Source: Thermoplasmata archaeon (GTDB lineage: Archaea; Thermoplasmatota; Thermoplasmata; Lutacidiplasmatales; UBA184). From it: a stretch of DNA of 64,000 nt. Below are positions 3,983-39,042 of this stretch, in pieces. The position numbers and the translations under genes were made by a program. The notes beneath the pieces were generated by a model, which ran no database searches, had not been told where the DNA came from, and was given only the letters and a program-made list of their open reading frames with translations. Numbering within the stretch: the first letter of the stretch is position 1; every line of letters begins with the position of its first letter. Location of the stretch: the NCBI GenBank assembly GCA_021806135.1, contig JAJZYB010000004.1, forward strand, positions 7,686 to 71,685, read 5' to 3'.

Positions 3983-4074
3983 GGGACCCTGAGGAGAGGG
4001 GCGGCGACGCCGCAGGCCCCTCGGGCGGCCCAAGGTTTTATCGTCCGGCGGGTCAGGCAGGGTCTGGGTTCTCC

Positions 4075-7027: not shown

Positions 7028-7039
7028 GAGGCGAGGAAC

Positions 7040-13574: not shown

Positions 13575-15041
13575 TCAGGAGTTCGGGACGATCTTGATCG
13601 ACTCGCCCCCGTGCCGGCTCGCCCGGGGACGGACCTCGCAGAAGAGGGGGGTGGTGAACCCACCGCCGGTGACCAGGCAGGTGCCGATGGGGAGCCCCTG
13701 GATGATCTCGGTCATCCCATCGGTGAGCCCTTCGATGCTCTGGGCGATGGCCCGGACGTCGAGCGGGTTGGTGACCTGAAGGATCAGCTGGGCGGCGCAC
13801 TGGGAGAGGACGCTCTTGTCCACCCGCGCCGGCCGCTGGCTCACCACGCAGAGCCCGAGGCCGAACTTCCGCCCCTCGCTGGCGATGGTCTTGAGGATCC
13901 GGGAGGAGAGCGCCTGGCCTTGCTGGGGGCAGAAATTGTGCGCCTCCTCGAGGACCAGGAAGAGGGGGGGGATCTTCCCCCGCTTCCGCTGGTCGAAGAA
14001 GCTGGTGGCCACCCGGGTCACGATGAGCTCCTGCACGTCCGGCGCCACGCCGCGCAGGTTCAGGATGGTCATCTTCCCCTGGACCACCAGCTCGGTGAGG
14101 CTGGTCCCCTTCGGGGCCAACAGCCGGGTCTCGTCGATGTATTCGAGGCGTTGGGCGATGGCCTCGAAGAGCGCTCCCCCATCCTCCCGTCCCCTCGCGA
14201 GCCGGATGAGGTCCTTGACCGTGTAGTCCTCGGCGCCCTGGCTGGCCTCGTCCAGGAGGGATTTCATGGGGGCCACATACCCCCGGACGTTGGTGATCCC
14301 CAGGAAGAGGAGGAGCTCCCGGGCATCCAGGTGTCCGAGGGAGAAGGTCAGCGGGCGTGCCTCGGCATTGAGCTTGGTGTCCGGGGAGAACTCCTGCACC
14401 TGCTCCCGGAACGACTGGGGTTCCACGTGGAAGCGTTCGGCCCTCTCCTTGGGGATGTGCTCGGTCTTGTAGCGGATGCTCCCGTACTCGCCGTGCGGGT
14501 CGATGATGATGCAGGTGACCCTGTGGCGGAGGAACTCCTCCAAGAGCACGCCCACCAGGTAGCTCTTCCCCCCGCCGGTCTTCGCGAGCACGCTCACATG
14601 GCGCTGGACCAAGGCGTTGATGTCCAGTTCCACCTTGAGGTCGTGTCCCCGGAGCAGCCCGAGGTAGGCGCCGGCGTTCCCGTTGGTCTTGAGGCCGAGG
14701 ACCTCGGCGATGAGGGGCTCCTGGGCCCGGTGGACGGTGGCTCCCGGGGCGAACGGGATCTGGGGGACCCGGATGAGCCCGCCCTCCCGGTAACCGAGGA
14801 TCCGAGCCTTGCCGTAGAAGGACTCCTGCACGTCCACGGAGCCGCCGTGGACCATCTCGGTGGCCTTCTCCAGGCTCAGGTCGCTCCGGCGCTGCACGTC
14901 GTCGAGCTGGCAGAGGACATCGCGTTCGCCCTCGTCCTTCACGGAGAGGTACTCTCCCCGTTCCAGGGGATGGGCGAGGGTCAGGCGGAACGCGCCGAGG
15001 CCGACGTCCCCATAGATCCGGCCCACCACCTCCCCCGGCAT
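13575..15041 (-). CDS. HerA/FtsK-like ATPase (DUF87 family)
   Basis: Walker A is VLAKTGGGKSY and Walker B is FLVLEEAHNF. An N-terminal barrel-like region precedes the ATPase. A TATA-like gctttatcgg on the minus strand lies about 30-40 nt upstream at 15071-15080. Confidence 0.75.
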   Translation of the reverse strand: MPGEVVGRIYGDVGLGAFRLTLAHPLERGEYLSVKDEGERDVLCQLDDVQRRSDLSLEKATEMVHGGSVDVQESFYGKARILGYREGGLIRVPQIPFAPGATVHRAQEPLIAEVLGLKTNGNAGAYLGLLRGHDLKVELDINALVQRHVSVLAKTGGGKSYLVGVLLEEFLRHRVTCIIIDPHGEYGSIRYKTEHIPKERAERFHVEPQSFREQVQEFSPDTKLNAEARPLTFSLGHLDARELLLFLGITNVRGYVAPMKSLLDEASQGAEDYTVKDLIRLARGREDGGALFEAIAQRLEYIDETRLLAPKGTSLTELVVQGKMTILNLRGVAPDVQELIVTRVATSFFDQRKRGKIPPLFLVLEEAHNFCPQQGQALSSRILKTIASEGRKFGLGLCVVSQRPARVDKSVLSQCAAQLILQVTNPLDVRAIAQSIEGLTDGMTEIIQGLPIGTCLVTGGGFTTPLFCEVRPRASRHGGESIKIVPNS

Positions 15042-15225
15042 GCTGGCCAGTCCTGGGGAGCCAAGCTCCGCTCCCCGATAAAGCCGTGACGTTCCACGGG
15101 GCCCTGGAGGCGCTCAGCGGACACCCGGTTCGAGGGGGGACGCGACCACGGCCAAGCCTTTATATGCCCTCGAGAAGGTGAACGACCGTCTTCTTGGCGG
15201 CGCGCCCCGCTCGGGCGCAGGTTCG

Positions 15226-16083
15226 ATGGCGGACGCGACAGAGGAACTCGAGAAAAAGCGCACGGAGGCGAACCGACGCGCCGACCAGTTCCGCGATGAG
15301 CGGGACCGCTTGAACTCCGAGGCCCGGCAATGGGCCGACAAGCGCATGGCCATCATTGACGAGCTCCGGGCCAAGAGCTCGGAGGCCCAGGCGCACCGGC
15401 ACGAGCGCGATGCGTTGAACGAGGGGGTCCGGGAGGAGAAGCGGGCCCGGGACGAGGCCAACCGCCAGTTCGAGACCCTGGCAGAGAAGGTCTCGGAACT
15501 CAAGCGGACCCGGCAGGCCCGCAGCGGGGGCATGCCCCTCTGGCGGCTCCGCAAGGAGCTCAAGGAACTGGAGTTCCGCCACATGACCAGCTCGCTCTCG
15601 AAGGAGGCCGAGACGCGCCTCCTGGGAGAGATCCAGCGCCTCCAGAAGGAGATCCGGACCCAGGAGGAGAGCTTCCATCAGGACCCCGAGGTCGATGGGG
15701 CCATGCGGGAGACGGAGGCCGCCCGGCAGGCGGCCGAGGAGCATCACCACCGGGTGGGCGAGCTCGCGGAACGGGCCCAGCGAGAGCATGAGCTCATGGT
15801 CCAGCTCTTCGAGGAGGTGGACCGCCTCCGGCGGGAGGCCGATGAGGTGCAGGCGAAGCTCCTCGAGGTCAAGACCGCCAGCGACCAGGCCCACCAGGCC
15901 CACATCCAGGCCATCGAAGAGGTGCGGGACCTGGAGAAGATGCTCCATGCGGCCCGGGCCCGGGCCCTAGGTCAACCCGAGGTGGAGGAACCCCCGAAGG
16001 AGGAAGACCTGTTCGCCCGGTTCAAGAAGGGAGGCAAGATCTCCACCGAGGACCTCATGGCCCTCCAGAAGAGCCCCCGGTGA
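15226..16083 (+). CDS. archaeal coiled-coil protein (COG1340-like)
   Basis: About 285 aa of heptad-rich E/R/K/A/L sequence (ELEKKRTEANRRADQFRDERDRLNSEARQW...). The ATG at 15226 is preferred over the track start 15178 because the TATA-like ctttatatg at 15152-15162 lies only 16 nt before 15178. Confidence 0.55.
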   Translation: MADATEELEKKRTEANRRADQFRDERDRLNSEARQWADKRMAIIDELRAKSSEAQAHRHERDALNEGVREEKRARDEANRQFETLAEKVSELKRTRQARSGGMPLWRLRKELKELEFRHMTSSLSKEAETRLLGEIQRLQKEIRTQEESFHQDPEVDGAMRETEAARQAAEEHHHRVGELAERAQREHELMVQLFEEVDRLRREADEVQAKLLEVKTASDQAHQAHIQAIEEVRDLEKMLHAARARALGQPEVEEPPKEEDLFARFKKGGKISTEDLMALQKSPR

Positions 16084-21514: not shown

Positions 21515-24500
21515 TCAGTCGTCGTCGGAGTCCTTCCCCTTGGAGGCGCGGCGGGGAGGGGCATCGTCCTCATCGTCGTCCTTGGAGGAGCCCTTCCCGC
21601 CCCGTCCGGACCCCTTAGCGCTCCCGGAGGTGCTCCCCCGGGCCCGGCGCCGGTAGGCGAAGTAGACCAGGACGATGATGAGGATCCCCACCGCCGCCAC
21701 GATCCCGTACTCCAGGTACTGGTTGGTCGGGCTCGGGTTCACGCTCACGGAGATCTGCGCCAGGTTCGCCCCGCCGACATAGTCCCCGGGGAACTCGTTC
21801 GTCGCGGTGGCGTTCGCCCAGAGCGCCCGGCTCCCGGTGAGGTTACCGGGCGCGGTGAACGTCACCTCGGCACGGAGCGTCTGGTTGTGCTTGAGCGTGG
21901 CGAGGCCCGTGAAGGCCACGGTCCCGTTCACCACTCCGTTGGTGTACCCGTAGAATCGGACCGCCCCGGGGGCTCCTCCCACCAGGGTCCGGTGGTCGGT
22001 GACGCCCGGCGAGGTGAGGTAGAAGGTCACCGACACGTTCTCCGCCACGGAGGAGTTCCCTCCCGCGTTGGTCACGTTGGTCCAGATCGTGTAGGACGAC
22101 CCCGCGGTCAGGCTGGTGGGGGTGGTGAAGTTGGAGACCTGCAGCACCGGACGCAGGGTGCGGTTCGGGGAGACCGTGAGCGGGAGGATGGTGGTGGCGG
22201 TATTGCCGGCCAGGTCCGTCACGGTCAGGTTGAAGGAATACGTCCCTTGCGCGGCCGGCAGCCAGACGGAGGGGGCCACGTCCGTGGTCGCGTTGAAGTA
22301 CCGTGGCGTGAACCCCGACCCCTTCGAGTTGTTCACGGTCCAGCGGTAGGCCGCGATGGAACCGTTCCCGGGGTCGTGGGAATACTTGTCGATGAGGGTC
22401 ACCTGGGCGGTCTCGTTGCTCCCTTCCACCAGCGTGGTCACGTTCTGGCCCTTCGAGTTCTGGAGGCTCCCGATGGCGTCCGGCTTCTGGGTGTCGTTCA
22501 CGAGCACCCAGAGGGTGGCGTTCGCCCGGTTCCCACCGGAGTCGAAGAGCGTCTCGCTGACCCGGTAGACCCATCCCTTGGTGGCGTAGGTCGTCCCGTT
22601 GATCACCGTGTGGTTCAGCCAGGGGCCGGCCCCCAGGAAGGCGTAGGTCACGTTGGCGAGGACGCGGGCCCCGGCGCCCAGGGAGTAGTTGTAGGACGCG
22701 TAGGTGGGTCCGGCGCTGATGTTCCAGATCGCGTCCGCAATGACTCCCGGGACCGAGGCACCGGAATAGAGGGCGTCCGTGCTCCCCGTGGCGTTGAAGC
22801 GCAGCGAAGTGGAGTAGTTCACGTAGGTGACGCCCAGGGTGTGGGCCCCGTTGAGCCAGTGCACCGCCGAGGCATTGGTGGCGATCTGGGGGGTGGGGGG
22901 CACCGAATCCACGAGGACCTTGAAGGAGACCACGCTCGTCTGACCTCCGTTCGCGACCAGGGTGAGACTACCGGGGTAGCTCCCGCCCTTCGCGTAGGTG
23001 TGATAGACCGTCACATTGGTGGTGTTGACCCCGGGGGTCCCGTCCCCGAAGGTCCAGCGGTAGGCGGTCACGTTGAAGGCGGAGGGGATGAGCGAGTTCG
23101 CGGCGGAGAGGCTCACGTTCTGGCCCGCCCCCACCACCACCGTGTAATTCGCCCGGCTGCTGTTGAGCACGTTGTGGCTGGAGAAGGCGAAGTTGCTGGA
23201 GGTCACGTTCACGATGGCGGAGACGTTCTGGAAGCGGTAGGCGGTGAACTGGGCCGTGGAGTTGAGCTCCGGGCCTGGGCTGTGGAGCGCGCTCAGCGTG
23301 AACGCGGTCCAGGTCCCTCCCGGTCCGGCCGGGGTGAGGACGGTCCCAAGGGGGGCGCTGGCGTGGGCGCCCAGAACGTAGTCCGGAGGCAGCACGACGG
23401 TGTAGTTGAGCGCCTCGTTGGAGACCGGGTAGCGGAAGCCCAGGGTCAACTGGTAGGACGAGTAGCTGGGCTTCAGGGCGGTGCCCAGGGTGTAGTTCTC
23501 CGTGGTCCGGTAGCCCAGAGCCTGATTGCTGTCGAAGTTGGTGTCGGTGGGGACGGAGGTGTAGTTCAGGTGGAAGCTACCGGTCTCCACGAAGCTGGTC
23601 CCGTTCACGGCGAGCCCCATCACGTCGGCCGGGTAGACCGGACCGGAAGAGGCCAGCCAGTTCTGGAACGCGGCGAACTCCGCGCTGGAGGCATTCACGG
23701 CGGGCGGGGAGCCGAAGTCCAGGGCCATCTGGGTGTAGAGGTTCCCCACGCTGGCATTGGGGAGGGACACGAACGTGGAACCCGCGGTCCGGGTGACCTG
23801 GCTCGTCACGTTCGCGGTGCTGAAGTTCTGGGGGAAGACGATGGTCGTGGCCTCCGCGGTGGGCGGATGGGTGCCGTCCGCCGTGACGGGCACCGAGAGC
23901 GAGAGCGTGGGCGCGGCGGCCGAGACCTTCAGGTACTGGGTCGCCGTCTCATAGCCCTGAGGGGAGAGGAACATCAGGAACTGGGTCCCAGGGGTTCCCG
24001 GGTTACCGGCCAGGAGCGAGGCGTAGGTCCCGGCCTGGAAGAAGTTCCCGGAGGTGGAGTACGAGTGGTACACCCCGCCAGTGCTCAGGTCGAACAGGGT
24101 GACGTTGGTGCTGTTGGTGATCGCGTACCCAGTGCTGGGAACCAGGTACCCCTGGACCAGGTAGTTCGTGATGCTCAGGTTCGTCCAGGTGGTGGCGCCG
24201 GCACTGGAGACCACGGCCTGGGTGAAGTTGTACCGGGGGGTGGAGGCCCCGGGGATGTTCGCCTGGGCGTAGACGGTCCAGGTCCCCACCGGCGCCGGGA
24301 GGCTGTAGGTGCCGGAGAAGGTGCCGTTCGACAGGACGAAACCGTTCTGGCTCGGGTCCCGGATCTCCACCACGGCGCCGGAGACGGGGTGACCGGAGGC
24401 GTTCACGTTCCCCCGGATGGTGGAAGAGAGCAGCAGCGAGGAGAGCCCCGAAAGGGCGATGGGCCCCCCGGAGGCGAGCGTGGAGGCCGAGGCGTAGAAC

Positions 24501-24853
24501 GTGTCCCTGGTGCTCTGGCTGGGGACGATATACTGCGCCGGGCTCACCGCGCGGTCGACCTGGGCGGGCACCCGGGCCGTGTACCATCCCGGGGTGAGGT
24601 CACAAGCGGCGCTGGAGAGGAACAGGGCCTGGCCGCCGAGGGTGGTGGTGGCGTTGCAGAGAAGATCCGACCCCTTCTGGAAGAGCGTGACGTTCACCCC
24701 CGCGGGGGCGGGCGTGCTGGAGGCGTCCAGCGTGACCCGCACGGCGAGCTTGTTCGAGTTGGGGGCCGTTGCGCTGGCGACCGGGACCACCAGGCCGATG
24801 AGGACCAGGGCCACGGTGGCCAGGAAGAGCGCGCGCTTCGCGGGGGAGATCAT
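21515..24853 (-). CDS. S-layer-like surface glycoprotein with a PKD domain and C-terminal TM anchor
   Basis: The N-terminal signal peptide is MISPAKRALFLATVALVLIGLVVPVASA. A PKD motif (YRWTFGDGTPG...YHTYAKGGSYPGSLTLVANGG) is present. There are dozens of N-x-S/T sequons. The C-terminus has a TM helix (GIVAAVGILIIVLVYFAY) followed by an R/K/D-rich tail. Confidence 0.8.
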   Translation of the reverse strand: MISPAKRALFLATVALVLIGLVVPVASATAPNSNKLAVRVTLDASSTPAPAGVNVTLFQKGSDLLCNATTTLGGQALFLSSAACDLTPGWYTARVPAQVDRAVSPAQYIVPSQSTRDTFYASASTLASGGPIALSGLSSLLLSSTIRGNVNASGHPVSGAVVEIRDPSQNGFVLSNGTFSGTYSLPAPVGTWTVYAQANIPGASTPRYNFTQAVVSSAGATTWTNLSITNYLVQGYLVPSTGYAITNSTNVTLFDLSTGGVYHSYSTSGNFFQAGTYASLLAGNPGTPGTQFLMFLSPQGYETATQYLKVSAAAPTLSLSVPVTADGTHPPTAEATTIVFPQNFSTANVTSQVTRTAGSTFVSLPNASVGNLYTQMALDFGSPPAVNASSAEFAAFQNWLASSGPVYPADVMGLAVNGTSFVETGSFHLNYTSVPTDTNFDSNQALGYRTTENYTLGTALKPSYSSYQLTLGFRYPVSNEALNYTVVLPPDYVLGAHASAPLGTVLTPAGPGGTWTAFTLSALHSPGPELNSTAQFTAYRFQNVSAIVNVTSSNFAFSSHNVLNSSRANYTVVVGAGQNVSLSAANSLIPSAFNVTAYRWTFGDGTPGVNTTNVTVYHTYAKGGSYPGSLTLVANGGQTSVVSFKVLVDSVPPTPQIATNASAVHWLNGAHTLGVTYVNYSTSLRFNATGSTDALYSGASVPGVIADAIWNISAGPTYASYNYSLGAGARVLANVTYAFLGAGPWLNHTVINGTTYATKGWVYRVSETLFDSGGNRANATLWVLVNDTQKPDAIGSLQNSKGQNVTTLVEGSNETAQVTLIDKYSHDPGNGSIAAYRWTVNNSKGSGFTPRYFNATTDVAPSVWLPAAQGTYSFNLTVTDLAGNTATTILPLTVSPNRTLRPVLQVSNFTTPTSLTAGSSYTIWTNVTNAGGNSSVAENVSVTFYLTSPGVTDHRTLVGGAPGAVRFYGYTNGVVNGTVAFTGLATLKHNQTLRAEVTFTAPGNLTGSRALWANATATNEFPGDYVGGANLAQISVSVNPSPTNQYLEYGIVAAVGILIIVLVYFAYRRRARGSTSGSAKGSGRGGKGSSKDDDEDDAPPRRASKGKDSDDD

Positions 24854-27378: not shown

Positions 27379-28335
27379 ATGGCGCCTCCCCTTGACCCTC
27401 TCCCTGGCTGGCTCAAGCGGCTCCTCGAGGAAGCGGGTTTCACCGTGGAGCCCCTTTCCGACACCTCCTGGAGGGCCTCTCGCCCCGCGGACGGGAAGGC
27501 CCTCCTCGGGGGCCCGGAGGCGGAACGGCGGCTCCGAAAAGGCCCTGGAGACCCCCCACCCTCCGGGGAGACCCTCTACTTGCTCCTCCCCCGTCTCCCG
27601 CGTCTGCGGGAGCGGGAGCGTGCGGCCACCGCAGGGTTCCATCTGCTCTCTCCCGAGACCCTCCTCGCCGACCTCGACCTGCTCCTGGTCGTTTCCCCCG
27701 CCCCTGAACCTCCCGTGACCCCCCTCTCCCCGGTGCCCCCTCCTCCGCCCGAGGAGGTCTTCCCGGAGGCGCCCACGCCCTTCCCACCGGAGGTCTTCCC
27801 CCGGGAGCGGGTGGTGAGGCCCCGGATCGGCTGGGACGACGCCCGGAGGTACGCGGAGGACCGGCTCCGGGGCTACCGGATCCGTCCCGTTCTGGTCCCC
27901 TTCTATCTCTTCGCGTACCGGATCCGCGGTCTCCCGGGAGACCGTCCGGGAAGCCCGCACTTCTGGGTCGCGGCCCCGGCCATCCCGGGGGAGGTGGAGT
28001 TCTGGTCGACGCGGGAGCGGGAATTGGTCCCCCAAATACCCGGAGAGTGGCGTCGGTTGCCCGGGACCCGGTCGGAGGAGGACTGCCGGGCCGCGGCGCT
28101 CTCCACCGCCCTCGTGCACCACGGCAGGATCGTGGATCGCTCGGAGTGGCGTGGGGGCGTGCTGGTCATCGACCGGACGCGGGGGTCACTGGGGGCGGAG
28201 GAGGTGGAGATGGGGGAGGGTTCACTGGTCTGGGTCCCTCACTGGCTGCTCGATGGACGCAACGGGCGGATCATCCTGGACTCCGTGACCGGCCTACCAG
28301 CTCAGCTGGACCCCGAAGACGGGTTCGACGGATAG
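27379..28335 (+). CDS. hypothetical protein (318 aa) with a proline-rich central linker
   Basis: The frame has high GC3 and the gene is divergent from cdc48. I recognise no motif. The central PEPPVTPLSPVPPPPPEEVFPEAPTPFPPE linker separates two predicted globular halves. Confidence 0.45.
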   Translation: MAPPLDPLPGWLKRLLEEAGFTVEPLSDTSWRASRPADGKALLGGPEAERRLRKGPGDPPPSGETLYLLLPRLPRLRERERAATAGFHLLSPETLLADLDLLLVVSPAPEPPVTPLSPVPPPPPEEVFPEAPTPFPPEVFPRERVVRPRIGWDDARRYAEDRLRGYRIRPVLVPFYLFAYRIRGLPGDRPGSPHFWVAAPAIPGEVEFWSTRERELVPQIPGEWRRLPGTRSEEDCRAAALSTALVHHGRIVDRSEWRGGVLVIDRTRGSLGAEEVEMGEGSLVWVPHWLLDGRNGRIILDSVTGLPAQLDPEDGFDG

Positions 28336-30506: not shown

Positions 30507-31164
30507 CCCCCCCTCTTTCCGGGCCCTTCCGGGACCGGAGGAGCCAATCCTCCCGCCAGGCCATCTTCTTGGGGAGCCGGGAGAACCAACGGACGTCGGC
30601 GATCTCACGGAGGTCATGGGGCCGAAGGGGGCCTCCCCTCCACCGGGCCCGATACTGCAGGAAGATCCAGGTCAGGCGTCTCCCGTCGGGCGCCCGGAGC
30701 TCCTCGTCGTAGACCTTCCACAACCGGAGGTCGAGGACGGAACCTCCCGTCTCCTCCCGGACCTCCCGGCGGACCGATCGGCGGGGGGTCTCGCCTCGCC
30801 GGCCCCCGCCCCCGGGGGTGACCCACCACTGTCGGGGGTCACGGCCCACCGGAGGACGGACGAGGAGGACCCGTCCCCTCCGGTCCTCCACCCGGCAGGC
30901 CACTCCAAAGGCCGGTCCATTGAGGATCCGACGGGCGGCGCTGTCGAAGGCCACCTGCGGTACGTCACGTTGCCGGGCGATCCAGACGGCACGGTGCTCC
31001 CTGCCCCATTCCGCTCGGGCGAGTGCGCGGGCCCGCCGGAGAACCTCCTGCCCCACCCGACCCCTGTCCCGTCCCGGGGACGGTGGTGGGAAAGACGCAG
31101 GCTCGGTTAACCCCTTATCCGTCCCGGTCACTGGCGAGACGGACATGGCCGAACCGACCCCCAT
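30301..31164 (-). CDS. NUDIX hydrolase; the start is uncertain and the 3' end reads into the opposite-strand gene
   Basis: The Nudix box GGGGRRGETPRRSVRREVREETGG is perfect. Only the central roughly 150 aa look like a Nudix fold. The last roughly 70 codons are low complexity and antisense to the phosphatase-like gene. Confidence 0.55.
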   Translation of the reverse strand: MGVGSAMSVSPVTGTDKGLTEPASFPPPSPGRDRGRVGQEVLRRARALARAEWGREHRAVWIARQRDVPQVAFDSAARRILNGPAFGVACRVEDRRGRVLLVRPPVGRDPRQWWVTPGGGGRRGETPRRSVRREVREETGGSVLDLRLWKVYDEELRAPDGRRLTWIFLQYRARWRGGPLRPHDLREIADVRWFSRLPKKMAWREDWLLRSRKGPERGGVNRGYGASSRGSSRPARRPVLSAPPPRPAGPFPIGSWDPSSSSGTRAWRPGPGASQDPPARPRRRPRA

Positions 31165-33784
31165 GATGGCCCAGTATCAGGGCGTGCGGGCCCGGTACCC
31201 GGGACACCTGGTGCTCTTCCGGGTGGGGGACTTCTACGAGACCTTCTACGAGGATGCGGAAACGCTCTCCCGGGAACTGGAGGTGGTGCTCACCAGCCGG
31301 TCCTTCGAGGGCGAGGATCCCGTCCCGCTCGCCGGGGTGCCCCATCACGCCATCGAACCGTACCTGGCCCGCCTGGTCCGAAAGGGGTACCGAGTGGTGA
31401 TCTGCGACCAGGTGGAGGACCCGAAGAAGGCCCGGGGGCTGGTCCGGCGGGAGGTGACGCGCGTGCTCACCCCCGGGACGGTCCTGGAAGAGACCCTGCT
31501 CCCCGGAGGGCGAAGCAACTTCCTATTCGCTGTCCAAGGCTCGGTGGAGACGGAGTGGTGGGCCGCCCTGGTGGACGTCTCCACCGGAGAGACGGTGGTC
31601 CACTCCCGGGAGGGAACGGGCCTGGAGGTCCTCGTGTCCGAGCTTGCCGGCTTCGCCCCGGTGGAGGTGCTGGTGCCTTGGGCGACGGGCGGGCCGGTCC
31701 CTTCGGAAGGGTTCTGGGAGGAGCGACTCCCGGGGGTGCGCCGGAGCGTGCTCCCCCCTCCGGTGTCGGTGGCGGACCTCCCGTCGGCCTGGTCGCGTTT
31801 CGTCGTGACCCACCCGAGCGCGGCCGGCGTGCTGGGCTCGCTGGCGGCGTACGTCCGGACCTCCGAGCCCCGGGTGCTCGTCTTGGTGAACCCCCCGCGG
31901 ATGCACCAGAACGCGGGTCGGATGGGGCTCGACGCGAAGACCCTCCGTCACCTGGAGATCTCGGAGCCCATGTCCCCCGGGGCCGGCCGCGGGCGGACGC
32001 TCCTCGACGCGATGGACGAGACGGTGACCCCCCAGGGCAGGCGTCGGCTGACCTCCTGGATCACCGCTCCCCTCGCCGACCCGGTCGCCATCGAGGAGCG
32101 GCTCGACGTGGTCGGCTATTGTTTGGACGCCCCGGGCCTCCTCCCCAAGGTACGGGAGGCATTGAAGGGGGTGGGGGACCTCTCCCGGCTCGCCTCCCGG
32201 ATCCTGGCCCGTCGTGGGGGGCCCCGGGACCTGGGGGCGCTCGGTCGGTCCTTGGACGGGGTCTTACGCCTTCGCACCTTGCTCAGCGAACTCCCCCCGG
32301 GGGGCGTCCCGTCCCTGCTGGGCGACCTCCGGAACTCCCTGGACCCCCTGGACACGCTGAGGAGTCGCCTGGGCGAGACGCTCTCCGACGACCTCCCAGC
32401 CCTTCCGGGCCAGGGGGGGATGCTCCGTTCCGAGGCCTTTCCCCGGCTCCGGGAGCTCCGCGCCCTTCAGGATGGGGCGCTCGCCGCCCTCACCGCCCTC
32501 GAACGCCGGGAAGCCGAGGCGAGTGGCATCCGCTCCCTGAAGGTGGGGTACAACCAGGTCTTCGGGTACTATCTGGAGGTCAGCCGCTCCCAATTGGAGC
32601 GCGTCCCCGCCGACCGTTGGCACCGTAAGCAGACCTTGGCCCAGGGGGAGCGCTACACCACCGAGGAGCTCACTGCACTGGAGGCGACGATCCTCCAGGC
32701 CCGGGAGAGCCTGCGGGAGGCGGAGATGGATCTCTACGAAGGGCTCCTCAAGGAGGTGGATGCCCAGGCCCCTTCGGTGCAGGCCACCGGGGAGGCGGTG
32801 GCGAGCCTGGATGCGCTGGCCACCTTCGCCCAACTGGCCCGGCTCCGGCGGTGGGTGAGGCCGAAGGTCCTCGACCATGGCCGGATCCGGATCCTGGAGG
32901 GTCGGCACCCGGTCCTCGAGACCACCTTGGGACCGGCCTATGTCCCGAACGACCTGGAGCTCGACCGGGCCGGCGGCCGGCTCCTGCTCCTCACCGGACC
33001 TAACATGGCCGGCAAATCCACCTACATGAGGCAGGCGGGGCTCCTCGTCGTCCTCTCCCAGGCCGGAAGCTTCGTGCCGGCCCGGTATGCCGAGGTGGGC
33101 GTGGTCAGTTCGCTCTGCACCCGGATGGGGTTCACGGACGACCAGGGACGCGGGAAGAGCAGCTTCATGGTGGAGATGTCGGAGGTCTCCGAGATCCTCC
33201 AACGCTCCGACGAGAGGAGCCTGGTCCTTCTCGACGAGGTGGGACGCGGGACCGGGACGGCGGATGGCTTCGCCTTGGCGTGGGCGATCCTCCGGTACCT
33301 CCACGATGACGTGCGGTGCCGGACCATCGTGGCCACCCACTACTACGGGCTCGCCGCGAAGGTGGAAGGCCTCTCCGGAGGTCGGAACGCCCACCTGGCG
33401 GTGAAGGAGGAGCGGGGGGGGATCGTCTTCTTGAGGACCCTCCTCCCCGGGGCGACCGACAAGAGCTATGGTCTCCACGTGGCGGAGCTGGCCGGCCTGC
33501 CGCCCAGTGTCCTTCAGGAGGCGCGCAAGGAACTGCGCCACCGGGAGGTCGCCGGGGAGCGGGGGGGAGGAGCCTCCCCTGCCCGTCGCGCCATCCAAAG
33601 CGTCCTGTGGACGGCACCCGGACCAGAGCTCGGCCGGGAGATCATCGACGAACTGAGGGCGCTTTCCCCGGAGGGTCTCACCCCCCTGGAAGCCCTGACC
33701 TGGCTGACCCGGTGGCGGCACCGCCTCGACGGAACGCCTTCCGCCCCCGCAGGCCCATCGAACGGGAAGGCGGATACGGAGTGA
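31145..33784 (+). CDS. mutS: DNA mismatch repair protein MutS (MutS1 type)
   Basis: The N-terminus is MAEPTPMMAQYQGVRARYPGHLVLFRVGDFYETFYEDA. Walker A is LLLTGPNMAGKSTYMRQ, and STFMVEMSE follows. The ATG at 31145 is in frame with the over-long track ORF 30818..33784. Confidence 0.9.
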   Translation: MAEPTPMMAQYQGVRARYPGHLVLFRVGDFYETFYEDAETLSRELEVVLTSRSFEGEDPVPLAGVPHHAIEPYLARLVRKGYRVVICDQVEDPKKARGLVRREVTRVLTPGTVLEETLLPGGRSNFLFAVQGSVETEWWAALVDVSTGETVVHSREGTGLEVLVSELAGFAPVEVLVPWATGGPVPSEGFWEERLPGVRRSVLPPPVSVADLPSAWSRFVVTHPSAAGVLGSLAAYVRTSEPRVLVLVNPPRMHQNAGRMGLDAKTLRHLEISEPMSPGAGRGRTLLDAMDETVTPQGRRRLTSWITAPLADPVAIEERLDVVGYCLDAPGLLPKVREALKGVGDLSRLASRILARRGGPRDLGALGRSLDGVLRLRTLLSELPPGGVPSLLGDLRNSLDPLDTLRSRLGETLSDDLPALPGQGGMLRSEAFPRLRELRALQDGALAALTALERREAEASGIRSLKVGYNQVFGYYLEVSRSQLERVPADRWHRKQTLAQGERYTTEELTALEATILQARESLREAEMDLYEGLLKEVDAQAPSVQATGEAVASLDALATFAQLARLRRWVRPKVLDHGRIRILEGRHPVLETTLGPAYVPNDLELDRAGGRLLLLTGPNMAGKSTYMRQAGLLVVLSQAGSFVPARYAEVGVVSSLCTRMGFTDDQGRGKSSFMVEMSEVSEILQRSDERSLVLLDEVGRGTGTADGFALAWAILRYLHDDVRCRTIVATHYYGLAAKVEGLSGGRNAHLAVKEERGGIVFLRTLLPGATDKSYGLHVAELAGLPPSVLQEARKELRHREVAGERGGGASPARRAIQSVLWTAPGPELGREIIDELRALSPEGLTPLEALTWLTRWRHRLDGTPSAPAGPSNGKADTE

Positions 33785-34171
33785 GGAAGGGCGCCCCCCG
33801 GGGATCCGGCCGAGTCCATCCAAACGGTGTTCCCCCTCCGTTCGTCCCGCCGCGGCGGGGACCATGCTGGACCCGGGTCGCGGCGCCTTCGCGAGCGGAG
33901 ACCATCGACCGGGGGAGGGCGGCCGGCCCTGCTGTCCCGCCACCGAGGGCTTGATCGGACCCCTTCCCCGTCTTCTCTGCCGCCCTGACCCGGAGCGGGG
34001 GTACCGGGGCCGGCCGGGGTGCCCTGGACCGTGGGGCTCCTCGGGGCGGCACCGTACTCCTGGCCGGTCGGCTCGCGTTCGTCCTCCTGGCGTGGAGACG
34101 TTGATCCGGGGAGTCCCGGTCGCTCTCCGTGGGGAAAGGGTAAAGGTCCGTTCTCCGGTCCACCGGGACTC

Positions 34172-36001
34172 ATGACCGGCCTGGGCGGCCCCAGCGACTC
34201 CCCGGGGCTTGGCGGAGAGCCCCGGATCCAGCGCTTGGACGAGATCACCATCCGTCTCATCGCGGCGGGGGAGGTGGTGGAGCGACCGGCCTCGGTGGTC
34301 AAGGAACTGGTGGAGAACGCCCTGGACGCCCGGGCCCGGGTCCTCACCGTGGGGATCGAGGACGGGGGCCTCTCCCGGATCGAGGTCGCCGACGACGGGA
34401 CCGGGATCCCCCGGGACGACCTGCCTCTGCTCTTCCAACGGCACGCCACCAGCAAGCTCCGCTCAGGGGCTGGGCTCCCCGTGGTCACCACCCTGGGGTT
34501 CCGGGGGGAGGCGCTCGCCTCCATCGCTTCGGTCTCCCGGGTACGGTTGACCACGTGCACCCCGGGGGAAGCCCACGGCTACGCCGTCACGGTGGACGCC
34601 GGATCCCCGGCCGCGATCGGCTCCGCGGCCCGTGCCCCGGGAACCACGGTGGAGGTCCGGGACCTCTTCTACCGGACCCCGGCCCGGCGGAAGTTCCTCC
34701 GTACGCCGGCCTCCGAGGGCCTGCGGATCCTGCAGATGCTGCAACGGGTCTACCTCGCCCACCCGGGGATCGACCTCACCTTCGTCCAGGACGGGGAGGT
34801 CCGCTTCCGGCTCCCGCCCCTCCCCGACCTCCCCGCTGCGGCCCGGGAGGTCTTCCCGGACGCCCTGGGAGAGGGGGCATTCCCCTTCCAGGGCAGCGGG
34901 GGTCCCGGGCTCTGGATCGAGGGGGTGGCCTCCCCCCCGTCGTTCTCCCGGGGGAATGCCGACGGGATCGTGCTCCTGGTGAACGGCCGACCGTTCTCCT
35001 CCCGCTCCCTGCAGGAGGGGATCCGATACGCCTACCGGGAGCTCCTCCCCCGGGGACGGTATCCGGTGGTGGTGGCCCATCTGCGGGCAGACCCGTCCCG
35101 GGTGGACGTGAACGTGCACCCCACGAAACGCGAGGTGCGCTTCGAGGATGAAGCGGCGCTCCGGGACGCCCTCCAGCACCTTCTCCACGGAGCCCTCCGG
35201 GACCAGCCCCGGACGTCAGGCCTTTCCCAGGGAGCCTCCGGCCCGCTGCCGTTCGTCCTGCCAGAGCCTTCCGGGGACCTGTCCAGGGCCCGGGGCGCTC
35301 CCCTTCCTCTCCCGCTCTCGTTGGGGGGAACGGCCATCCCCCGGGACCTGGCCCACTATACCGGGGAAATCTCGCCAGGGCGGGATCCCTCCCGGGGAGC
35401 GACGCTGCCCGCCACCGGCGTCCATCCCGCGCTCCGGCTCCTGGGAGAGGTGGGAAGGCTCTACCTCGTGGCCGAGGCCCTGGAGCCCCCTGGATCCCTC
35501 GTCCTCGTCGATGCCCACGCCGCCAGCGAACGCATCGTGTATGAGCGGGTGAAGCAGGAGGACCCCCCCGCGCACCAGGAACTCCTGGTCCCCCGGGACC
35601 TCGCCCTCACCCCGGTCCAGGCGGCGGCCTGGGAGGTGCACGGGGAGGCCCTCTCCCGTCTCGGGTTCCGGGTGGAGCCGTTCGGGAAGGGGATCTGGCG
35701 GGTCCGTTCCTTGCCCAGCTTCCGGGGACGCGTGGCGCGTCCCGAGACGCTCGGTCCCCTGCTCGAGGAGCTCGCCGCCGGGAACCAAGGCGCTCCTCAG
35801 GAGGCGCTGACCGAACGGCTGGCGAAGAGCGTCGCCTGTCACCTCGCCATCCGGGGAGGGGACGTCCTATCGCTGGAGGAGATGGAACGGCTCCTCCGGG
35901 AGCTCTACGCGTGCGCAGAGAGCTTCACCTGCCCCCATGGACGCCCCATCATGGTGACCGTCCCGCGCTCGCGCCTGGACCGGTGGTTCCATCGGCCGTG
36001 A
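34172..36001 (+). CDS. mutL: DNA mismatch repair protein MutL (endonuclease-proficient type)
   Basis: The GHKL ATPase N-terminus is IRLIAAGEVVERPASVVKELVENALDA. The C-terminal region VDAHAASERIVYE matches the MutL DQHA(x)2E(x)4E nuclease motif. Confidence 0.9.
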   Translation: MTGLGGPSDSPGLGGEPRIQRLDEITIRLIAAGEVVERPASVVKELVENALDARARVLTVGIEDGGLSRIEVADDGTGIPRDDLPLLFQRHATSKLRSGAGLPVVTTLGFRGEALASIASVSRVRLTTCTPGEAHGYAVTVDAGSPAAIGSAARAPGTTVEVRDLFYRTPARRKFLRTPASEGLRILQMLQRVYLAHPGIDLTFVQDGEVRFRLPPLPDLPAAAREVFPDALGEGAFPFQGSGGPGLWIEGVASPPSFSRGNADGIVLLVNGRPFSSRSLQEGIRYAYRELLPRGRYPVVVAHLRADPSRVDVNVHPTKREVRFEDEAALRDALQHLLHGALRDQPRTSGLSQGASGPLPFVLPEPSGDLSRARGAPLPLPLSLGGTAIPRDLAHYTGEISPGRDPSRGATLPATGVHPALRLLGEVGRLYLVAEALEPPGSLVLVDAHAASERIVYERVKQEDPPAHQELLVPRDLALTPVQAAAWEVHGEALSRLGFRVEPFGKGIWRVRSLPSFRGRVARPETLGPLLEELAAGNQGAPQEALTERLAKSVACHLAIRGGDVLSLEEMERLLRELYACAESFTCPHGRPIMVTVPRSRLDRWFHRP

Positions 36002-36033
36002 CTCCCCGAGACGCGGGTACCTCCCCTCGCCCG

Positions 36034-36597
36034 GTGCGGGAGTCGGAGCTGCGGGCTCCCCTGGAGCGCTTCCTCTCCTCCCGGGGCTACCGGGTGGATT
36101 TCGATGTCGACGGGCAGGATTACTTCGATGCCGTCGCGCGCAGGGGGGACGAACTCGGCCTGGTGGAGCTCAAGCTCACCGATTGGAGGAAGGTGCATGC
36201 CCAGGCGCTGGTCCGACGGGCCTGGGCCGATTGGGTGGCGGTCCTTCTCTCCCGTCGGTCCTTGGCGGAACGTCTGCGGACCCGGGCGGGGCCGCCCGCC
36301 GTCGGTCGGGTGGGGCTCTGGTACCTGGAGCACGGGGAGGTCCAGGTCCTCAGGGAGGCTTCCCCGATCCCCGGGGCCCTCTCCTTCCCTCTCCGCGGAG
36401 AGCTTCAGTTCGCCCTCGGCGTCCGGGACCGGGGGGAACTGCCTCCGGGCGCGGTCTGGTCGGGTCTCGGCCCGGTTCGGAACCGGCGGGCCGGGAGACG
36501 CTGGGATGGCCGCTTCTGGCGGCTGGAGGAGTTCGCCGAGCCGCCGGAGACGGGGGGGCCCCCCGGAGAGCGCACCGGCCCGGACCCGGGTTCCTAG
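36034..36597 (+). CDS. small PD-(D/E)xK nuclease-fold protein (Hjc-like core) immediately downstream of mutL
   Basis: ERFLSSRGYRVDFDVDGQDYFDAVARRGDELGLVELKLTDWRKV matches the restriction-endonuclease-like D...(E/D)xK pattern and aligns with the Hjc core (VDLVA...IEVK). The GTG at 36034 starts about 30 nt after the mutL stop. Confidence 0.4.
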   Translation: MRESELRAPLERFLSSRGYRVDFDVDGQDYFDAVARRGDELGLVELKLTDWRKVHAQALVRRAWADWVAVLLSRRSLAERLRTRAGPPAVGRVGLWYLEHGEVQVLREASPIPGALSFPLRGELQFALGVRDRGELPPGAVWSGLGPVRNRRAGRRWDGRFWRLEEFAEPPETGGPPGERTGPDPGS

Positions 36598-38519
36598 CCG
36601 CCGGGACCAGGGGGTCGCCTCCGGAAGGAGGGCAAGCGCAACGTTGGCGGTTGGACCTCCTCCTCCTTCAAGGAGACCACGAACGAGTCGGCCACGTCCT
36701 CCCGGGTCAGCATTCCGACCACCCATGCCGGGTCCACCGGATCAGCGACATAGACCGCGGGGGTCCCCGAACGCAACAGCAGTTCCATCGCGGTGCGGGC
36801 GGATTCATCCTCGCGGATCACCGGCAGATCGCGCCGGGCCAGGAGTCCCACCGGGGAGTCCCTCGTCCCGGTCCGGCGGATCTGGAGACGGACTTCGGCG
36901 AAGGTCACGTACCCCATCCGGTGCCCATCCTCGTCCACCACGAGGAACGCGCCCTCGGATCCTTCCGCTTCCGGCAGGGCGTGCAGGGCCTCTTCCAGGG
37001 ACCAGTGCCAGGGGACCACTAGGATACGGCGGGCCATGAGCTTCCCCACGGTGAGGGTCTCCAATGGGTCGATCCGGTACTCCTGGGAAACGTGGGTCCC
37101 GCGTCGGGCCACCCTCTCGGTGAGGATGGACCGGGGAAGGAGGAGCACCGAGAGCCCGTAGGCGGCCAGGGAGGCGACCAGGAGGACCGGGAGCATCGAG
37201 AGGTCGTGGGTGAGCTCCACTCCGAAGACCAACGAGGTGAGGGGGGCCCGGAACGCTCCGGAGAGGGCGGCGACCATTCCAAGGAGGGCAGCCAGGGGTA
37301 ATCCAACCCCGGGGAGAAGGAGAGCCAGGACCCCCGTGGCGGAGCCGCCGATGATGAGCAGGGGGGCCAGGGTCCCGCCGGAGGTGCCGGAACTGAGCGC
37401 CAGGATCCAAATGGCCGCCTTCACCAGAGCGAGGGAGAGCAGGAACCCCAGTCCAGCGTCCCCGGCGAGCATCAGGGAGAGGTTCTCGTAGCCCACCCCA
37501 AGGGCATAGGGCTGGACCAATCCACCCACCCCGACCGCCAGCCCTCCGATCGCCGGCCACCAGACCCAGGAAATGGGCAAGCGCCGGTACAGGTCCTCCG
37601 TCCGATAGATCCCCACGGTGAGGCCAATGGCCACGGCAGCGCCGAAGAGCCCGAGGCCCAGGGCGTAGAGGAGGGTCCCCGGAAGCGGGGCAGCGGTGGG
37701 GAGGGCGTTCACCCCGAAGAGCGGCGCCGAACCGAAGAACGGGTTGATCCTGCCGAGCGGGCCCCGGATCGCGGTGGCCGTCGCCACCGCCGCCGCGACC
37801 GGGAGCAGGCTGCGGGGCCGCCACTCGAAGAGGAGCACCTCCACCGCGAGCAGGACCGCCGCGAGGGGCGTGTTGAAGGTCGCCGCCATTCCGGCCGCAG
37901 CACCGGCCGCGAGGAGCGTCTTGCGCTCCGCGGGAGAGATCGCGATGAGCTGCCCCCAGACCGATCCCACGGCACCGCCGGTCATGATGATGGGTCCCTC
38001 GGCCCCGAAGGGCCCCCCGGTCCCGATGGCGATGGCCGAGGCCAGCGGCTTCAACAGGGCGGTGCGGGGAGCCATACGGCTTCCCCGGGTCAGCGTGGAC
38101 TCCAACGCCTCCGGAATCCCGTGCCCTCGGATCGTGGGACTCCCGTAGCGGGCCAGGAGCCCCACTAGGAGCCCACCGATCACAGGCACCGCCACCGCCA
38201 ATGCCCCCAGGGGAGAACCCACCGGGGTGACGTTCGCCAGGCTCAGACGCAGGAAGTAGAACCCGTTGGTGAAGAACTGAATGAGCACGTAGAGGGCAAG
38301 GGCTACCAGGGCCGCCACCGCGCCCAGCAGCGCGGACAACGCCACGAGGGCGAGGGTCCGCCGGTTCACAGCGGCAAAGTCCCGGGATCCCCGTACCCCG
38401 GAAGGGGCTGAACCGGTCCCGGACGATAGGCCCCCCGCCCCCTCCGACGACCGGCAACGGGTGAACGATCTGGCCGGCCGCTCCTCGTCTCCCGGAAGAG
38501 ACGGAGCGGAACGGTCCAT
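36594..38519 (-). CDS. ClC-family chloride channel / H+-Cl- antiporter with a C-terminal CBS pair
   Basis: The selectivity-filter motifs GHGIPE and GPFGAEGP are present, with many TM helices and C-terminal CBS domains. The true start is probably downstream of the track start. Confidence 0.85.
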   Translation of the reverse strand: MDRSAPSLPGDEERPARSFTRCRSSEGAGGLSSGTGSAPSGVRGSRDFAAVNRRTLALVALSALLGAVAALVALALYVLIQFFTNGFYFLRLSLANVTPVGSPLGALAVAVPVIGGLLVGLLARYGSPTIRGHGIPEALESTLTRGSRMAPRTALLKPLASAIAIGTGGPFGAEGPIIMTGGAVGSVWGQLIAISPAERKTLLAAGAAAGMAATFNTPLAAVLLAVEVLLFEWRPRSLLPVAAAVATATAIRGPLGRINPFFGSAPLFGVNALPTAAPLPGTLLYALGLGLFGAAVAIGLTVGIYRTEDLYRRLPISWVWWPAIGGLAVGVGGLVQPYALGVGYENLSLMLAGDAGLGFLLSLALVKAAIWILALSSGTSGGTLAPLLIIGGSATGVLALLLPGVGLPLAALLGMVAALSGAFRAPLTSLVFGVELTHDLSMLPVLLVASLAAYGLSVLLLPRSILTERVARRGTHVSQEYRIDPLETLTVGKLMARRILVVPWHWSLEEALHALPEAEGSEGAFLVVDEDGHRMGYVTFAEVRLQIRRTGTRDSPVGLLARRDLPVIREDESARTAMELLLRSGTPAVYVADPVDPAWVVGMLTREDVADSFVVSLKEEEVQPPTLRLPSFRRRPPGPGG

Positions 38520-38679
38520 TCCTGGGAGAAGAGACTGCCTCCAGGGGTTTGAACTTTCCGTTCTCTCCCGGGCTCAGGGGTGGTCCCCCCGGGACGCAAG
38601 CCTTCATGCCCGATCCAGGATACCCGCGCCTCCGTGAGCCCGGTCGCCACGACCGCTTCAGAACCCAATCCCCGACGGC

Positions 38680-39042
38680 GGCATGGGCTCATCACCGAAG
38701 GAAGCGGTTTCTTCCTCTTCGCCCTGACCGGTGGCACCGGCGTGGAAGTCAATCTCCTTGCCTACCTGCCCGTTCTGCGCCGCATGGAACTTCTCCCTGA
38801 ACTGGCACCTGGCGTTCCGTCGCCACCACAACCGTCCCTGGACGGAGCATCTCTTGGGCTACGTCCTCATCGCCCTGATGGCGTTGGGCAGCAATCTGCT
38901 CGGGCTGACGCTGCTCCTTTCCCGGCTAGGCCCGCTCGTCGTCCAAATGGGAGGGATCGCTGCCGGCAGCCTCTGGGGGTACGGCGCCAACCGTACGCTC
39001 AACTTCCGGGACCTGCGACCCATCCCGGAACGGTCAGGGTGA
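38680..39042 (+). pseudogene. GtrA-family small membrane protein remnant (frame switch plus apparent loss of TM2)
   Basis: Frame 0 (about 38690-38780) encodes GFFLFALTGGTGVEVNLLAYLPVL, which matches GtrA TM1. Frame +1 (38731..39042) encodes AWNFSLNWHLAFRR...LLGYVLIALMALGSNLLGLTLLL...WGYGANRTLNFRD, the two N..LN+.W.F motifs and later TM helices. GC3 switches frame near 38780-38800. The usual roughly 25-aa TM2 segment is missing. Confidence 0.35.

Follow-up and report, generated by a model that had tools for sequence, protein, structure and literature searches.

A conserved putative nuclease gene directly downstream of mutL in Thermoplasmata archaea

A mutS-mutL pair and the gene that follows it

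We analyzed a stretch of 64,000 nucleotides from a Thermoplasmata archaeon (the window). Its genes for MCM, an archaeal-type AlaRS, FttA/aCPSF1, a proteasome subunit and CDC48 identify the DNA as archaeal, and all related loci came from Thermoplasmata MAGs. The window encodes MutS and MutL, followed by an uncharacterized gene that we call X:

mutS, 31145-33784, + strand: MutS1 type, 879 aa
mutS-mutL spacer, 33785-34171, no strand: 387 nt, non-coding
mutL, 34172-36001, + strand: endonuclease type, 609 aa
MutL motif DAHAASERIVYE, 35510-35545, + strand: endonuclease motif
MutL motif QELLVP, 35576-35593, + strand: QxxLxP clamp motif
MutL motif ACHLAIR, 35834-35854, + strand
MutL motif CPHGRP, 35930-35947, + strand
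gene X, 35998-36597, + strand: predicted PD-(D/E)xK-fold nuclease, uncharacterized, 199 codons from GTG 35998
X folded nuclease domain, 36034-36453, + strand: residues 1-140
X C-terminal tail, 36454-36594, + strand: disordered in the predicted structure, Arg-rich

A first-pass annotation had described a bacterial-type MutS1/MutL pair in an archaeon, and family models bore this out. MutS scored 777 bits against the TIGR01070 mutS1 model (cut-off 641.7) and carries both the mismatch-binding FxE motif (GDFYETF, 31226-31246) and a Walker A motif (GPNMAGKST, 32996-33022), which places it in the MutS1 family. Pfam domains I, III, IV and V were matched, with domain II under the cut-off. A clamp-motif-like QSVLW lies at 33596-33610, and the C-terminal Q-x-V-L motif is conserved among 44 clade sequences. 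MutL scored 454 bits against TIGR00585 (cut-off 180), is 100% identical to a database protein of 609 aa (P0185), and matched the Pfam domains HATPase_c, DNA_mis_repair and MutL_C. We defined an endonuclease-type MutL as one with a GHKL ATPase and the C-terminal motifs DQHA(X)2E(X)4E, ACR, C(P/N)HGRP and FXR; the window's MutL has a GHKL ATPase as its N-terminal domain and all of these motifs, ending in FHR. The DAHAASERIVYE, ACH, CPHGRP and FHR motifs and the QxxLxP clamp motif are conserved in 85 clade sequences. With their motifs retained clade-wide, both proteins look functional. A bacterial origin of the pair is suggested by how the two proteins scored against the equivalog models and by Lin et al. 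2007 (PMC2190696); the best 120 matches in a MutL search all fell within one Thermoplasmata lineage and so provided no outgroup for this question.

The 387-nt spacer between the two genes, noted earlier as holding no convincing ORF, indeed has flat GC over codon positions and no coding signal. We found no repeat of it within the window, no Rfam family match, and no conservation among 80 related loci, so it is specific to this genome.

Gene X proves to be genuine and evolves under purifying selection. Its GC by codon position (0.79/0.54/0.86) resembles that of the adjacent genes, its homologues form 35 protein clusters, and its dN/dS is 0.12-0.25. Three overlapping ORFs, at 35905-36726 (- strand), 36104-37039 (+ strand) and 36183-37022 (+ strand), were rejected as real genes on their codon-position GC. 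X had been reported to begin about 30 nt after the mutL stop. This has to be revised, as the most likely start is GTG 35998, whose GTGA overlaps the mutL TGA and opens a frame of 199 codons, in agreement with the gene call of a 98% identical protein (P0001). An internal GTG at 36034 is an in-frame alternative (187 codons), and residue numbers below follow this shorter form. At 50% identity the family falls into about 24 representative clusters, and it covers more than 150 loci, all annotated as hypothetical; X itself matched no family in Pfam, NCBIfam, PHROGs or PADLOC.

Predicted active site, tail and relatives of X

The predicted structure of X has an alpha-beta-beta-beta-alpha-beta core, the arrangement expected of the PD-(D/E)xK superfamily. 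The motif of that superfamily is also present, with D32 at the start of strand beta-2, E45-x-K47, Q57 and E3, encoded as follows:

E3, 36040-36042, + strand
D32, 36127-36129, + strand
E45, 36166-36168, + strand
K47, 36172-36174, + strand
Q57, 36202-36204, + strand

Across 83 orthologues with pairwise identities down to 27%, residues D26, D32, E45, K47, Q57, R61 and R62 are 100% invariant, and E3 is conserved in at least 90%. The first-pass annotation had named a lack of conservation outside this genome, or of the D/E/K residues among homologues, as findings that would count against the ORF as a nuclease gene; the 35 clusters and the invariant residues go the other way and support a genuine, conserved protein of predicted PD-(D/E)xK fold. 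Of the Hjc-like D...E-x-K signature proposed there, E45 and K47 stand, whereas the catalytic aspartate, judged by its position at the start of beta-2, is D32 (YFD-AVA) and does not lie in the VDFDVDG segment, where D26 is also invariant. On its sequence and modeled fold, X is a putative small metal-dependent PD-(D/E)xK DNA nuclease with an intact E...D...ExK...Q active site.

Beyond this domain, the predicted structure has pLDDT below 50 at residues 149-175, of which 164-167 form a short helix. The tail carries a motif, R156-x5-W162-R-L-E-E166-F (WRLEEF, 36517-36534), that is well conserved among the 83 orthologues (R156 96%, W162 87%, R163 81%, L164 83%, E166 98%). Compared with a PIP motif, it lacks the Gln and the double aromatic.

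The Pfam searches that had been suggested for this ORF gave no family match, whereas profile-profile comparison placed X near DUF2161-type proteins (hhalign 99.6%), with E3, D32, E45-x-K47 and Q57 aligned to their E, D, ExK and Q. This homology is confined to the N-terminal nuclease domain; PF09929 covers approximately residues 100-217 of those proteins, and neither it nor the MmcB model matched X or any of 36 family members (Pfam, E <= 10). The same scan returned VpsR matches for 15 of the 36 members (best 7e-5), and a single sequence match linked X to the response regulator in PDB 5t3y (E 0.027). We treated both as spurious matches to an 'L..GY.V....DG' segment because the predicted fold of X is not a receiver domain.

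Similarity, at hhalign 99.9% over 151 columns, was also found with apparently virus-borne proteins (the P0061-P0081 group and relatives of phrog_12193). These relatives are encoded away from mutL, either beside a viral-type MCM on virus-like contigs (L083) or where genes for a terminase large subunit and a ParB-methyltransferase share the contig (L081). A word-indexed search with a diverse alignment of distant relatives (A2) returned four proteins only. Scanning IMG/VR with X (A1), P0077 and A4 gave no match, so the distant relatives are taken to be viral from their gene content, namely the terminase of L081 and the viral-type MCM of L083. By sequence comparison, the nearest relatives of X appear to be DUF2161-type nuclease domains and genes on archaeal tailed-virus-like contigs, and X probably originated from a nuclease family of archaeal tailed viruses.

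Linkage of X to mutL and possible roles

To assess gene order, we used 158 loci with usable flanks (80 genome and 78 metagenome loci). The first-pass annotation had asked whether the ORF stays with mutL in relatives. It does: mutL precedes X on the same strand in all genome (80/80) and all metagenome (78/78) loci, and X was never seen away from mutL in this sample, nor found in IMG/VR. The 4-nt overlap between the X start and the mutL stop, present in the window, occurs in 134 of the 158 loci (62/80 genome, 72/78 metagenome) and persists at X identities down to about 40%. Another gene separates mutL from X in 6 of 80 loci, and X still follows where a GNAT-like or GT2 gene has entered after mutL. 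The same-strand order and the overlapping start make membership of X in a mutS-mutL operon well supported at the level of gene arrangement. No DNA methyltransferase conserved in this operon was found, and our literature search returned no paper linking MutL to an X-type nuclease in Thermoplasmata.

These counts have to be read against the history of the region. The X-bearing genomes all come from a single lineage, so the 158 loci cannot be counted as independent. Moreover, nearly all loci are collinear over a stretch of about 15 kb that includes the operon (FttA 56/57, proteasome 55/57, MBL 48/49), so that the mutL-X adjacency alone is no proof of shared function and could reflect inherited gene order rather than functional selection. 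The immediate downstream neighbor of X differs between loci; the CLC channel that follows it in the window was found there in 0 of 57 others.

We put at about even chances the reading that X is the third gene of a clade-specific mutS-mutL-X operon in Lutacidiplasmatales and their relatives, encoding a putative nuclease that is coupled to MutL and acts in mismatch repair. The data suggest X as a third partner in archaeal mismatch repair, a role that we infer from them. Translation of X would be coupled to that of MutL through the overlapping GTGA stop/start. MutS, with its intact FxE motif, would find the mismatch. MutL, whose endonuclease motifs are intact and whose QxxLxP clamp motif is conserved, would be recruited and then nick. 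X would act in this pathway after mismatch recognition, brought in by MutL or PCNA through its tail motif, although the partner of that motif is a guess. Such recruitment would resemble the tethering of Exo1 to MLH1 through a MIP box, and X would supply an excision or second-incision nuclease that the bacterial module lacks in an archaeal host. A bolder version, which we hold tentatively and at somewhat short of even chances, is that Thermoplasmata have a three-component MutS-MutL-X repair system, in which a transplanted bacterial MutSL was completed by a virus-captured nuclease that docks by its tail on MutL (or PCNA) and carries out strand excision or second incision. As a separate point against a mismatch repair role, MutL has its own nuclease and strictly needs no extra one.

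X might instead be a genuine nuclease that sits after mutL through frozen gene order and works elsewhere, in MmcB-like damage repair, in defense against mobile elements, or as a domesticated viral replication or recombination nuclease. The near-equal synteny of flanking genes unrelated to mismatch repair fits this account, as do the mutL-free surroundings of its closest relatives outside the clade, the occasional insertions between mutL and X, and the related locus L087, where X is missing within 6 kb of the mutS-mutL pair (MutL 48% identical), which means that X is not obligatory for this MutL clade. However, a simple inherited neighborhood does not require the 4-nt overlap, which implies co-transcription and coupled translation and has been retained while X itself diverged; nor does such an account sit easily with X staying behind mutL while its downstream neighbor changes, or with a DNA nuclease being a functionally fitting partner for MutL. 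We regard this account as possible and lean against it.

The first-pass annotation had proposed a strand-discrimination or resolution partner, an idea that stays hypothetical here. X could be a MutH-like nickase, activated by MutL to cut the unmodified or nascent strand at specific sites in place of clamp-directed nicking by MutL. Its fold class and intact active site would suit such a function, as MutH too is a small PD-(D/E)xK enzyme working with MutS-MutL, and the bacterial beta clamp is presumably absent, judging from the archaeal replication genes of the host. Yet MutL here keeps all of its endonuclease motifs, so a MutH-like replacement is not required of X, and its conserved QxxLxP motif makes PCNA-directed nicking plausible without X. 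The operon also has no conserved methyltransferase, and no Pfam family, MutH included, was credited for the 36 X members at E <= 10; we consider this role unlikely. Still less probable is a structure-specific nuclease of the Hjc/NucS type, which would dimerize to act on duplexes that are branched or mismatched; MutS-MutL would use it for heteroduplex rejection or double-strand cuts, not for excision. The likeness does not go beyond the fold (11-16% identity), X has no counterpart of the N-terminal mismatch-binding domain of NucS, and the Hjc Pfam model (PF01870) was not significantly matched by the X family.

Comparison with known mismatch repair systems

MutH of the E. coli MutHLS system shares its fold class with X, which is encoded directly after mutL. 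The two show no sequence-family relationship, since X lacks MutH/Sau3AI membership and any Pfam or NCBIfam match. MutH-type systems use a MutL without endonuclease motifs, whereas the MutL beside X has all of them; the MutH gene does not belong to a mutL operon, and no Dam-like methylase is linked to X. In eukaryotic mismatch repair, the excision nuclease Exo1 is tethered to MLH1 via the MIP box, a short motif of its disordered C-terminal tail, and X likewise has a predicted disordered tail with a W-R-L-E-E motif. This motif does not fit the MIP consensus, however, and Exo1 is a 5'-3' nuclease of the FEN1/XPG family rather than a PD-(D/E)xK enzyme.

Among proteins related to X through the N-terminal nuclease domain are DUF2161 (PF09929), MmcB-like proteins and PDB 3dnx (SPO1766); X lacks the C-terminal region covered by the PF09929 model. 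No linkage to mutL is known for these relatives, which are themselves largely uncharacterized in function. The virus-borne relatives share with X the motif set DPDG-DFFD ... ELKL-DW-K ... QA..R and have other C-terminal extensions in place of its WRLEE tail. The unannotated PD-(D/E)xK family defined here is tied to DUF2161-type and virus-borne nucleases, which hints that a repair operon took in and domesticated a viral gene.

EndoMS/NucS takes the place of MutS/MutL in most archaea (PMC4838380, PMC5290159), and in Halobacterium MutS/MutL are dispensable for the mutation rate (PMC2816208). X differs from EndoMS/NucS in lacking the N-terminal mismatch-binding domain and hence the two-domain architecture (11% identity); NucS is independent of MutS/MutL, whereas X appears coupled to them, and they would do the recognition. 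X bears on whether and how archaeal MutS/MutL work, and on how a bacterial repair module operates without the beta clamp, UvrD and bacterial exonucleases; it is a specific candidate, open to testing, for the downstream step that is missing. Should X be only a neighbor of mutL, its annotation would still be useful, with low wider interest. A three-component MutS-MutL-X system, if true, would represent a novel way of accomplishing the downstream half of mismatch repair, analogous to MutH and Exo1 and unrelated to either.

MutS and MutL in an archaeal genome

The window (70% GC) is archaeal, as shown by its genes for MCM, FttA/aCPSF1, CDC48, a proteasome subunit and an alanyl-tRNA synthetase of the archaeal type. 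The bacterial-type MutS-MutL pair that the first-pass annotation had recognized in it was borne out by family models, both of which scored above their cut-offs. The following features make up the locus, in which X denotes a small nuclease-fold gene:

31145-33784 (+): mutS, full MutS1 (TIGR01070, 777 bits; cut-off 641.7)
33785-34171: mutS-mutL spacer, 387 nt, GC-rich and non-coding
34172-36001 (+): mutL, 609 aa, endonuclease-type (TIGR00585, 454 bits; cut-off 180), identical to the database protein P0185
35998-36597 (+): X from its probable start, following mutL

In MutS, Pfam recognizes domains I, III, IV and V, and the FxE (GDFYETF) and Walker A (GPNMAGKST) motifs are present; MutL contains DAHAASERIVYE, ACHLAIR, CPHGRP and FHR; judged by their sequences, both proteins look fully functional. 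In addition, QSVLW in MutS (33596-33610) and QELLVP in MutL (35576-35593) resemble bacterial beta-clamp-binding peptides. These clamp-type motifs (Q-x-V-L in MutS, QxxLxP in MutL) are kept clade-wide even though the host is archaeal with PCNA-type replication genes, and PCNA may now be their target. The spacer was correctly described as holding no convincing ORF: it has no codon-position GC signal, no repeat within the window and no conservation in relatives. It is also unusually long, since most related loci have a gap of less than about 100 nt or a 4-nt overlap (e.g., loci L087 and L089).

Archaeal MutS1 and MutL are viewed as bacterial acquisitions, at first known from halophiles and methanogens only (PMC2190696), and the MutS/L-independent alternative is EndoMS/NucS (PMC4838380, PMC5290159). 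In Lutacidiplasmatales genomes, mutLS has been noted and the third gene left unmentioned (PMC9287336); our literature search found no paper linking MutL to the X nuclease family. Elsewhere in the window, a truncated ClpB/Clp_N-type AAA+ chaperone gene at its edge (2-2020, -) adds another gene of bacterial type to this archaeal genome. A gene for a HerA-like ATPase (13575-15041, -), scoring well under equivalog cut-offs, is divergent from a DUF7121 gene (15082-16083, +), and the two may form an uncharacterized two-gene module (13575-16083). A 1112-aa protein with PKD/Ig-like domains (21515-24853, -), of odd codon-position GC (GC1 0.56, GC3 0.93), is probably a surface protein.

Start, fold and relatives of X

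The frame at 36034-36597 has a GC content of 0.79/0.54/0.86 at the three codon positions, similar to neighboring genes; overlapping ORFs in other frames lack this pattern and were rejected. Compared with two relatives, the frame has dN/dS values of 0.12 and 0.25. The gene had been reported to begin about 30 nt past the mutL stop, but its reading frame extends without a stop to GTG 35998, where GTGA overlaps that stop, and P0001, a database protein 98% identical to X, is called from the equivalent codon to give 199 aa. X therefore probably starts at GTG 35998, so that the observation of a nuclease gene beside MutS-MutL stands with an earlier start codon. At its other end, X converges with a CLC chloride-channel gene (-) at 36594-36597, where the palindrome CTAG supplies both stop codons; there is therefore no intergenic terminator region between them.

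Searches of Pfam, NCBIfam, PHROG and PADLOC gave no model for X. Its structure was predicted with AlphaFold2 from 36 homologues (pLDDT 82.5, pTM 0.75), with block-mean pLDDT values of 86-98 for residues 1-140 (numbered from GTG 36034). The predicted topology, alpha(3-15)-beta(20-23)-beta(33-37)-beta(40-47)-alpha(51-64)-beta(67-72), is that of a PD-(D/E)xK core, after which come a small alpha/beta extension and a disordered tail. A Foldseek search retrieved 3dnx (E 9e-5), and the top BFVD matches were proteins annotated as MmcB-like DNA repair protein and uncultured archaeal virus proteins. Among 83 complete orthologues, which share 27-100% identity in pairs (median 45%), D26, D32, E45, K47, Q57, R61, R62, D66, W67 and G94 are invariant, and the tail carries a conserved motif, R156...W162-R-L-E-E166. 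In the model, D32 starts beta-2 and E45-x-K47 lies within beta-3; going by secondary structure, these residues would occupy the canonical catalytic positions, and the active site is predicted to be nuclease-type and intact. The PD-(D/E)xK assignment made at first pass is thus correct, as supported by the topology, the 3dnx match and the D/E/K residues conserved beyond this genome, whereas "Hjc-like" should not be read as assigning X to a family.

Searched as a profile against 1.84 billion representative proteins, X gave 711 matches at E <= 1e-3, of which the 24 at E <= 1e-30 are the mutL-linked family. A second tier (database proteins P0061-P0081) has the common motifs DPDG-DFFD, ELKL-DW-K and QA..R and aligns with X in hhalign at 99.9% probability over 151 columns. 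Contigs encoding these relatives look viral from their gene content. Distant relatives of X on virus-like contigs include:

L081, 4464-5204: second tier, on a contig with a terminase large subunit and a ParB-N6/N4 methyltransferase
L083, 3017-3847: second tier, directly after a viral-type MCM helicase
L084, 6451-7218: distant relative, on a contig with sugar-nucleotide enzymes and a dual-specificity phosphatase

On the L081 and L083 contigs, small unknown ORFs occur in runs and mutL was not found; scans of IMG/VR gave no second-tier relative. In a third tier, the C-terminal part of the proteins matches PF09929 (DUF2161) and the N-terminal domain aligns with X so that the E, D, ExK and Q residues coincide (99.6% probability). 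Based on these tiers, X is a new family in a poorly characterized branch of the PD-(D/E)xK superfamily.

Linkage of X to mutL

Species-representative genomes yielded 80 X loci, all in Thermoplasmata; every related locus found came from Thermoplasmata MAGs, including Candidatus Lutacidiplasma and Lutacidiplasmatales. The synteny with mutL that the first pass had proposed to test holds throughout: mutL lies upstream on the same strand in 80/80 loci, and on every contig that extends far enough it is in turn preceded by mutS. X follows mutL directly in 74 loci and after one inserted gene in six, where it is still downstream of mutL. The inserted genes were classified by eye as GNAT-like (L002-L006) or as a family-2 glycosyltransferase (L033):

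L002, 4074-5240, and L006, 8920-9990: ORF of ~350-390 codons with a GNAT-like motif, overlapping the mutL end
L003-L005, equivalent position: ORFs less clear
L033, 8839-9870: glycosyltransferase-2-like by eye

In 62/80 genome loci, the X frame has a start codon (ATG, GTG or TTG) in a 4-nt overlap with the mutL stop. An independent scan of metagenome contigs added 80 X loci, a few duplicating earlier ones; mutL was immediately upstream in all 78 with upstream flank, with a start/stop overlap in 72. Approached from MutL, X was downstream in three of four relatives with long contigs (L086, L088 and L089). In L087, mutS and mutL (3335-7875, 58% GC) overlap by 4 nt and MutL is 48% identical, but X was not found within 6 kb. 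The neighborhood there is different, with the gene of a giant Pilin_N protein preceding the pair and a convergent glycosyltransferase gene following it, and L087 is a natural comparison lineage.

The whole neighborhood of mutS-mutL-X is collinear across the clade. Where flank was available, FttA (56/57 loci), a proteasome subunit (55/57) and a phosphodiesterase (50/57) lie downstream of X, and a metallo-beta-lactamase gene lies upstream in 48/49. Beside the latter, an ORF of 318 aa that matches nothing in Pfam (27379-28335, +) is upstream of mutS in 45/49 related loci. The CLC channel gene (36594-38519, -), which also encodes a CBS domain, is at this position only in the window (0/57 related loci), and a small GtrA-like gene (38731-39042, +) is missing there in all 57 loci with enough flank. 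The stretch 36594-39042 looks like a genome-specific insertion that separates X from the conserved phosphodiesterase-FttA-proteasome block.

Possible role in mismatch repair

Due to this collinearity, conserved adjacency alone shows no shared function, and the 158 genome and metagenome loci are not independent. Together with the L087 exception, it makes a serious case, to which we give a weight of about one third, that X is a pure hitch-hiker beside mutL. However, several points go beyond inherited gene order: the stop/start overlap is kept at low sequence identity, X was never found away from mutL, the gene immediately downstream of X varies, and a nuclease would be a fitting biochemical partner for MutL. 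A functional link to mismatch repair is plausible, with X as an unproven candidate. A MutH-like nuclease is a less likely form of such a link, because MutL has kept an endonuclease of its own and a linked methylase is missing.

The overlapping stop and start codons imply that expression of X would be coupled with that of MutL. As a component of mismatch repair, X would act downstream of MutS-MutL, as an excision or second-incision nuclease, and could be recruited via its tail to MutL or PCNA. Exo1 binds MLH1 via its MIP box and would be the analogue of this proposed tail recruitment.
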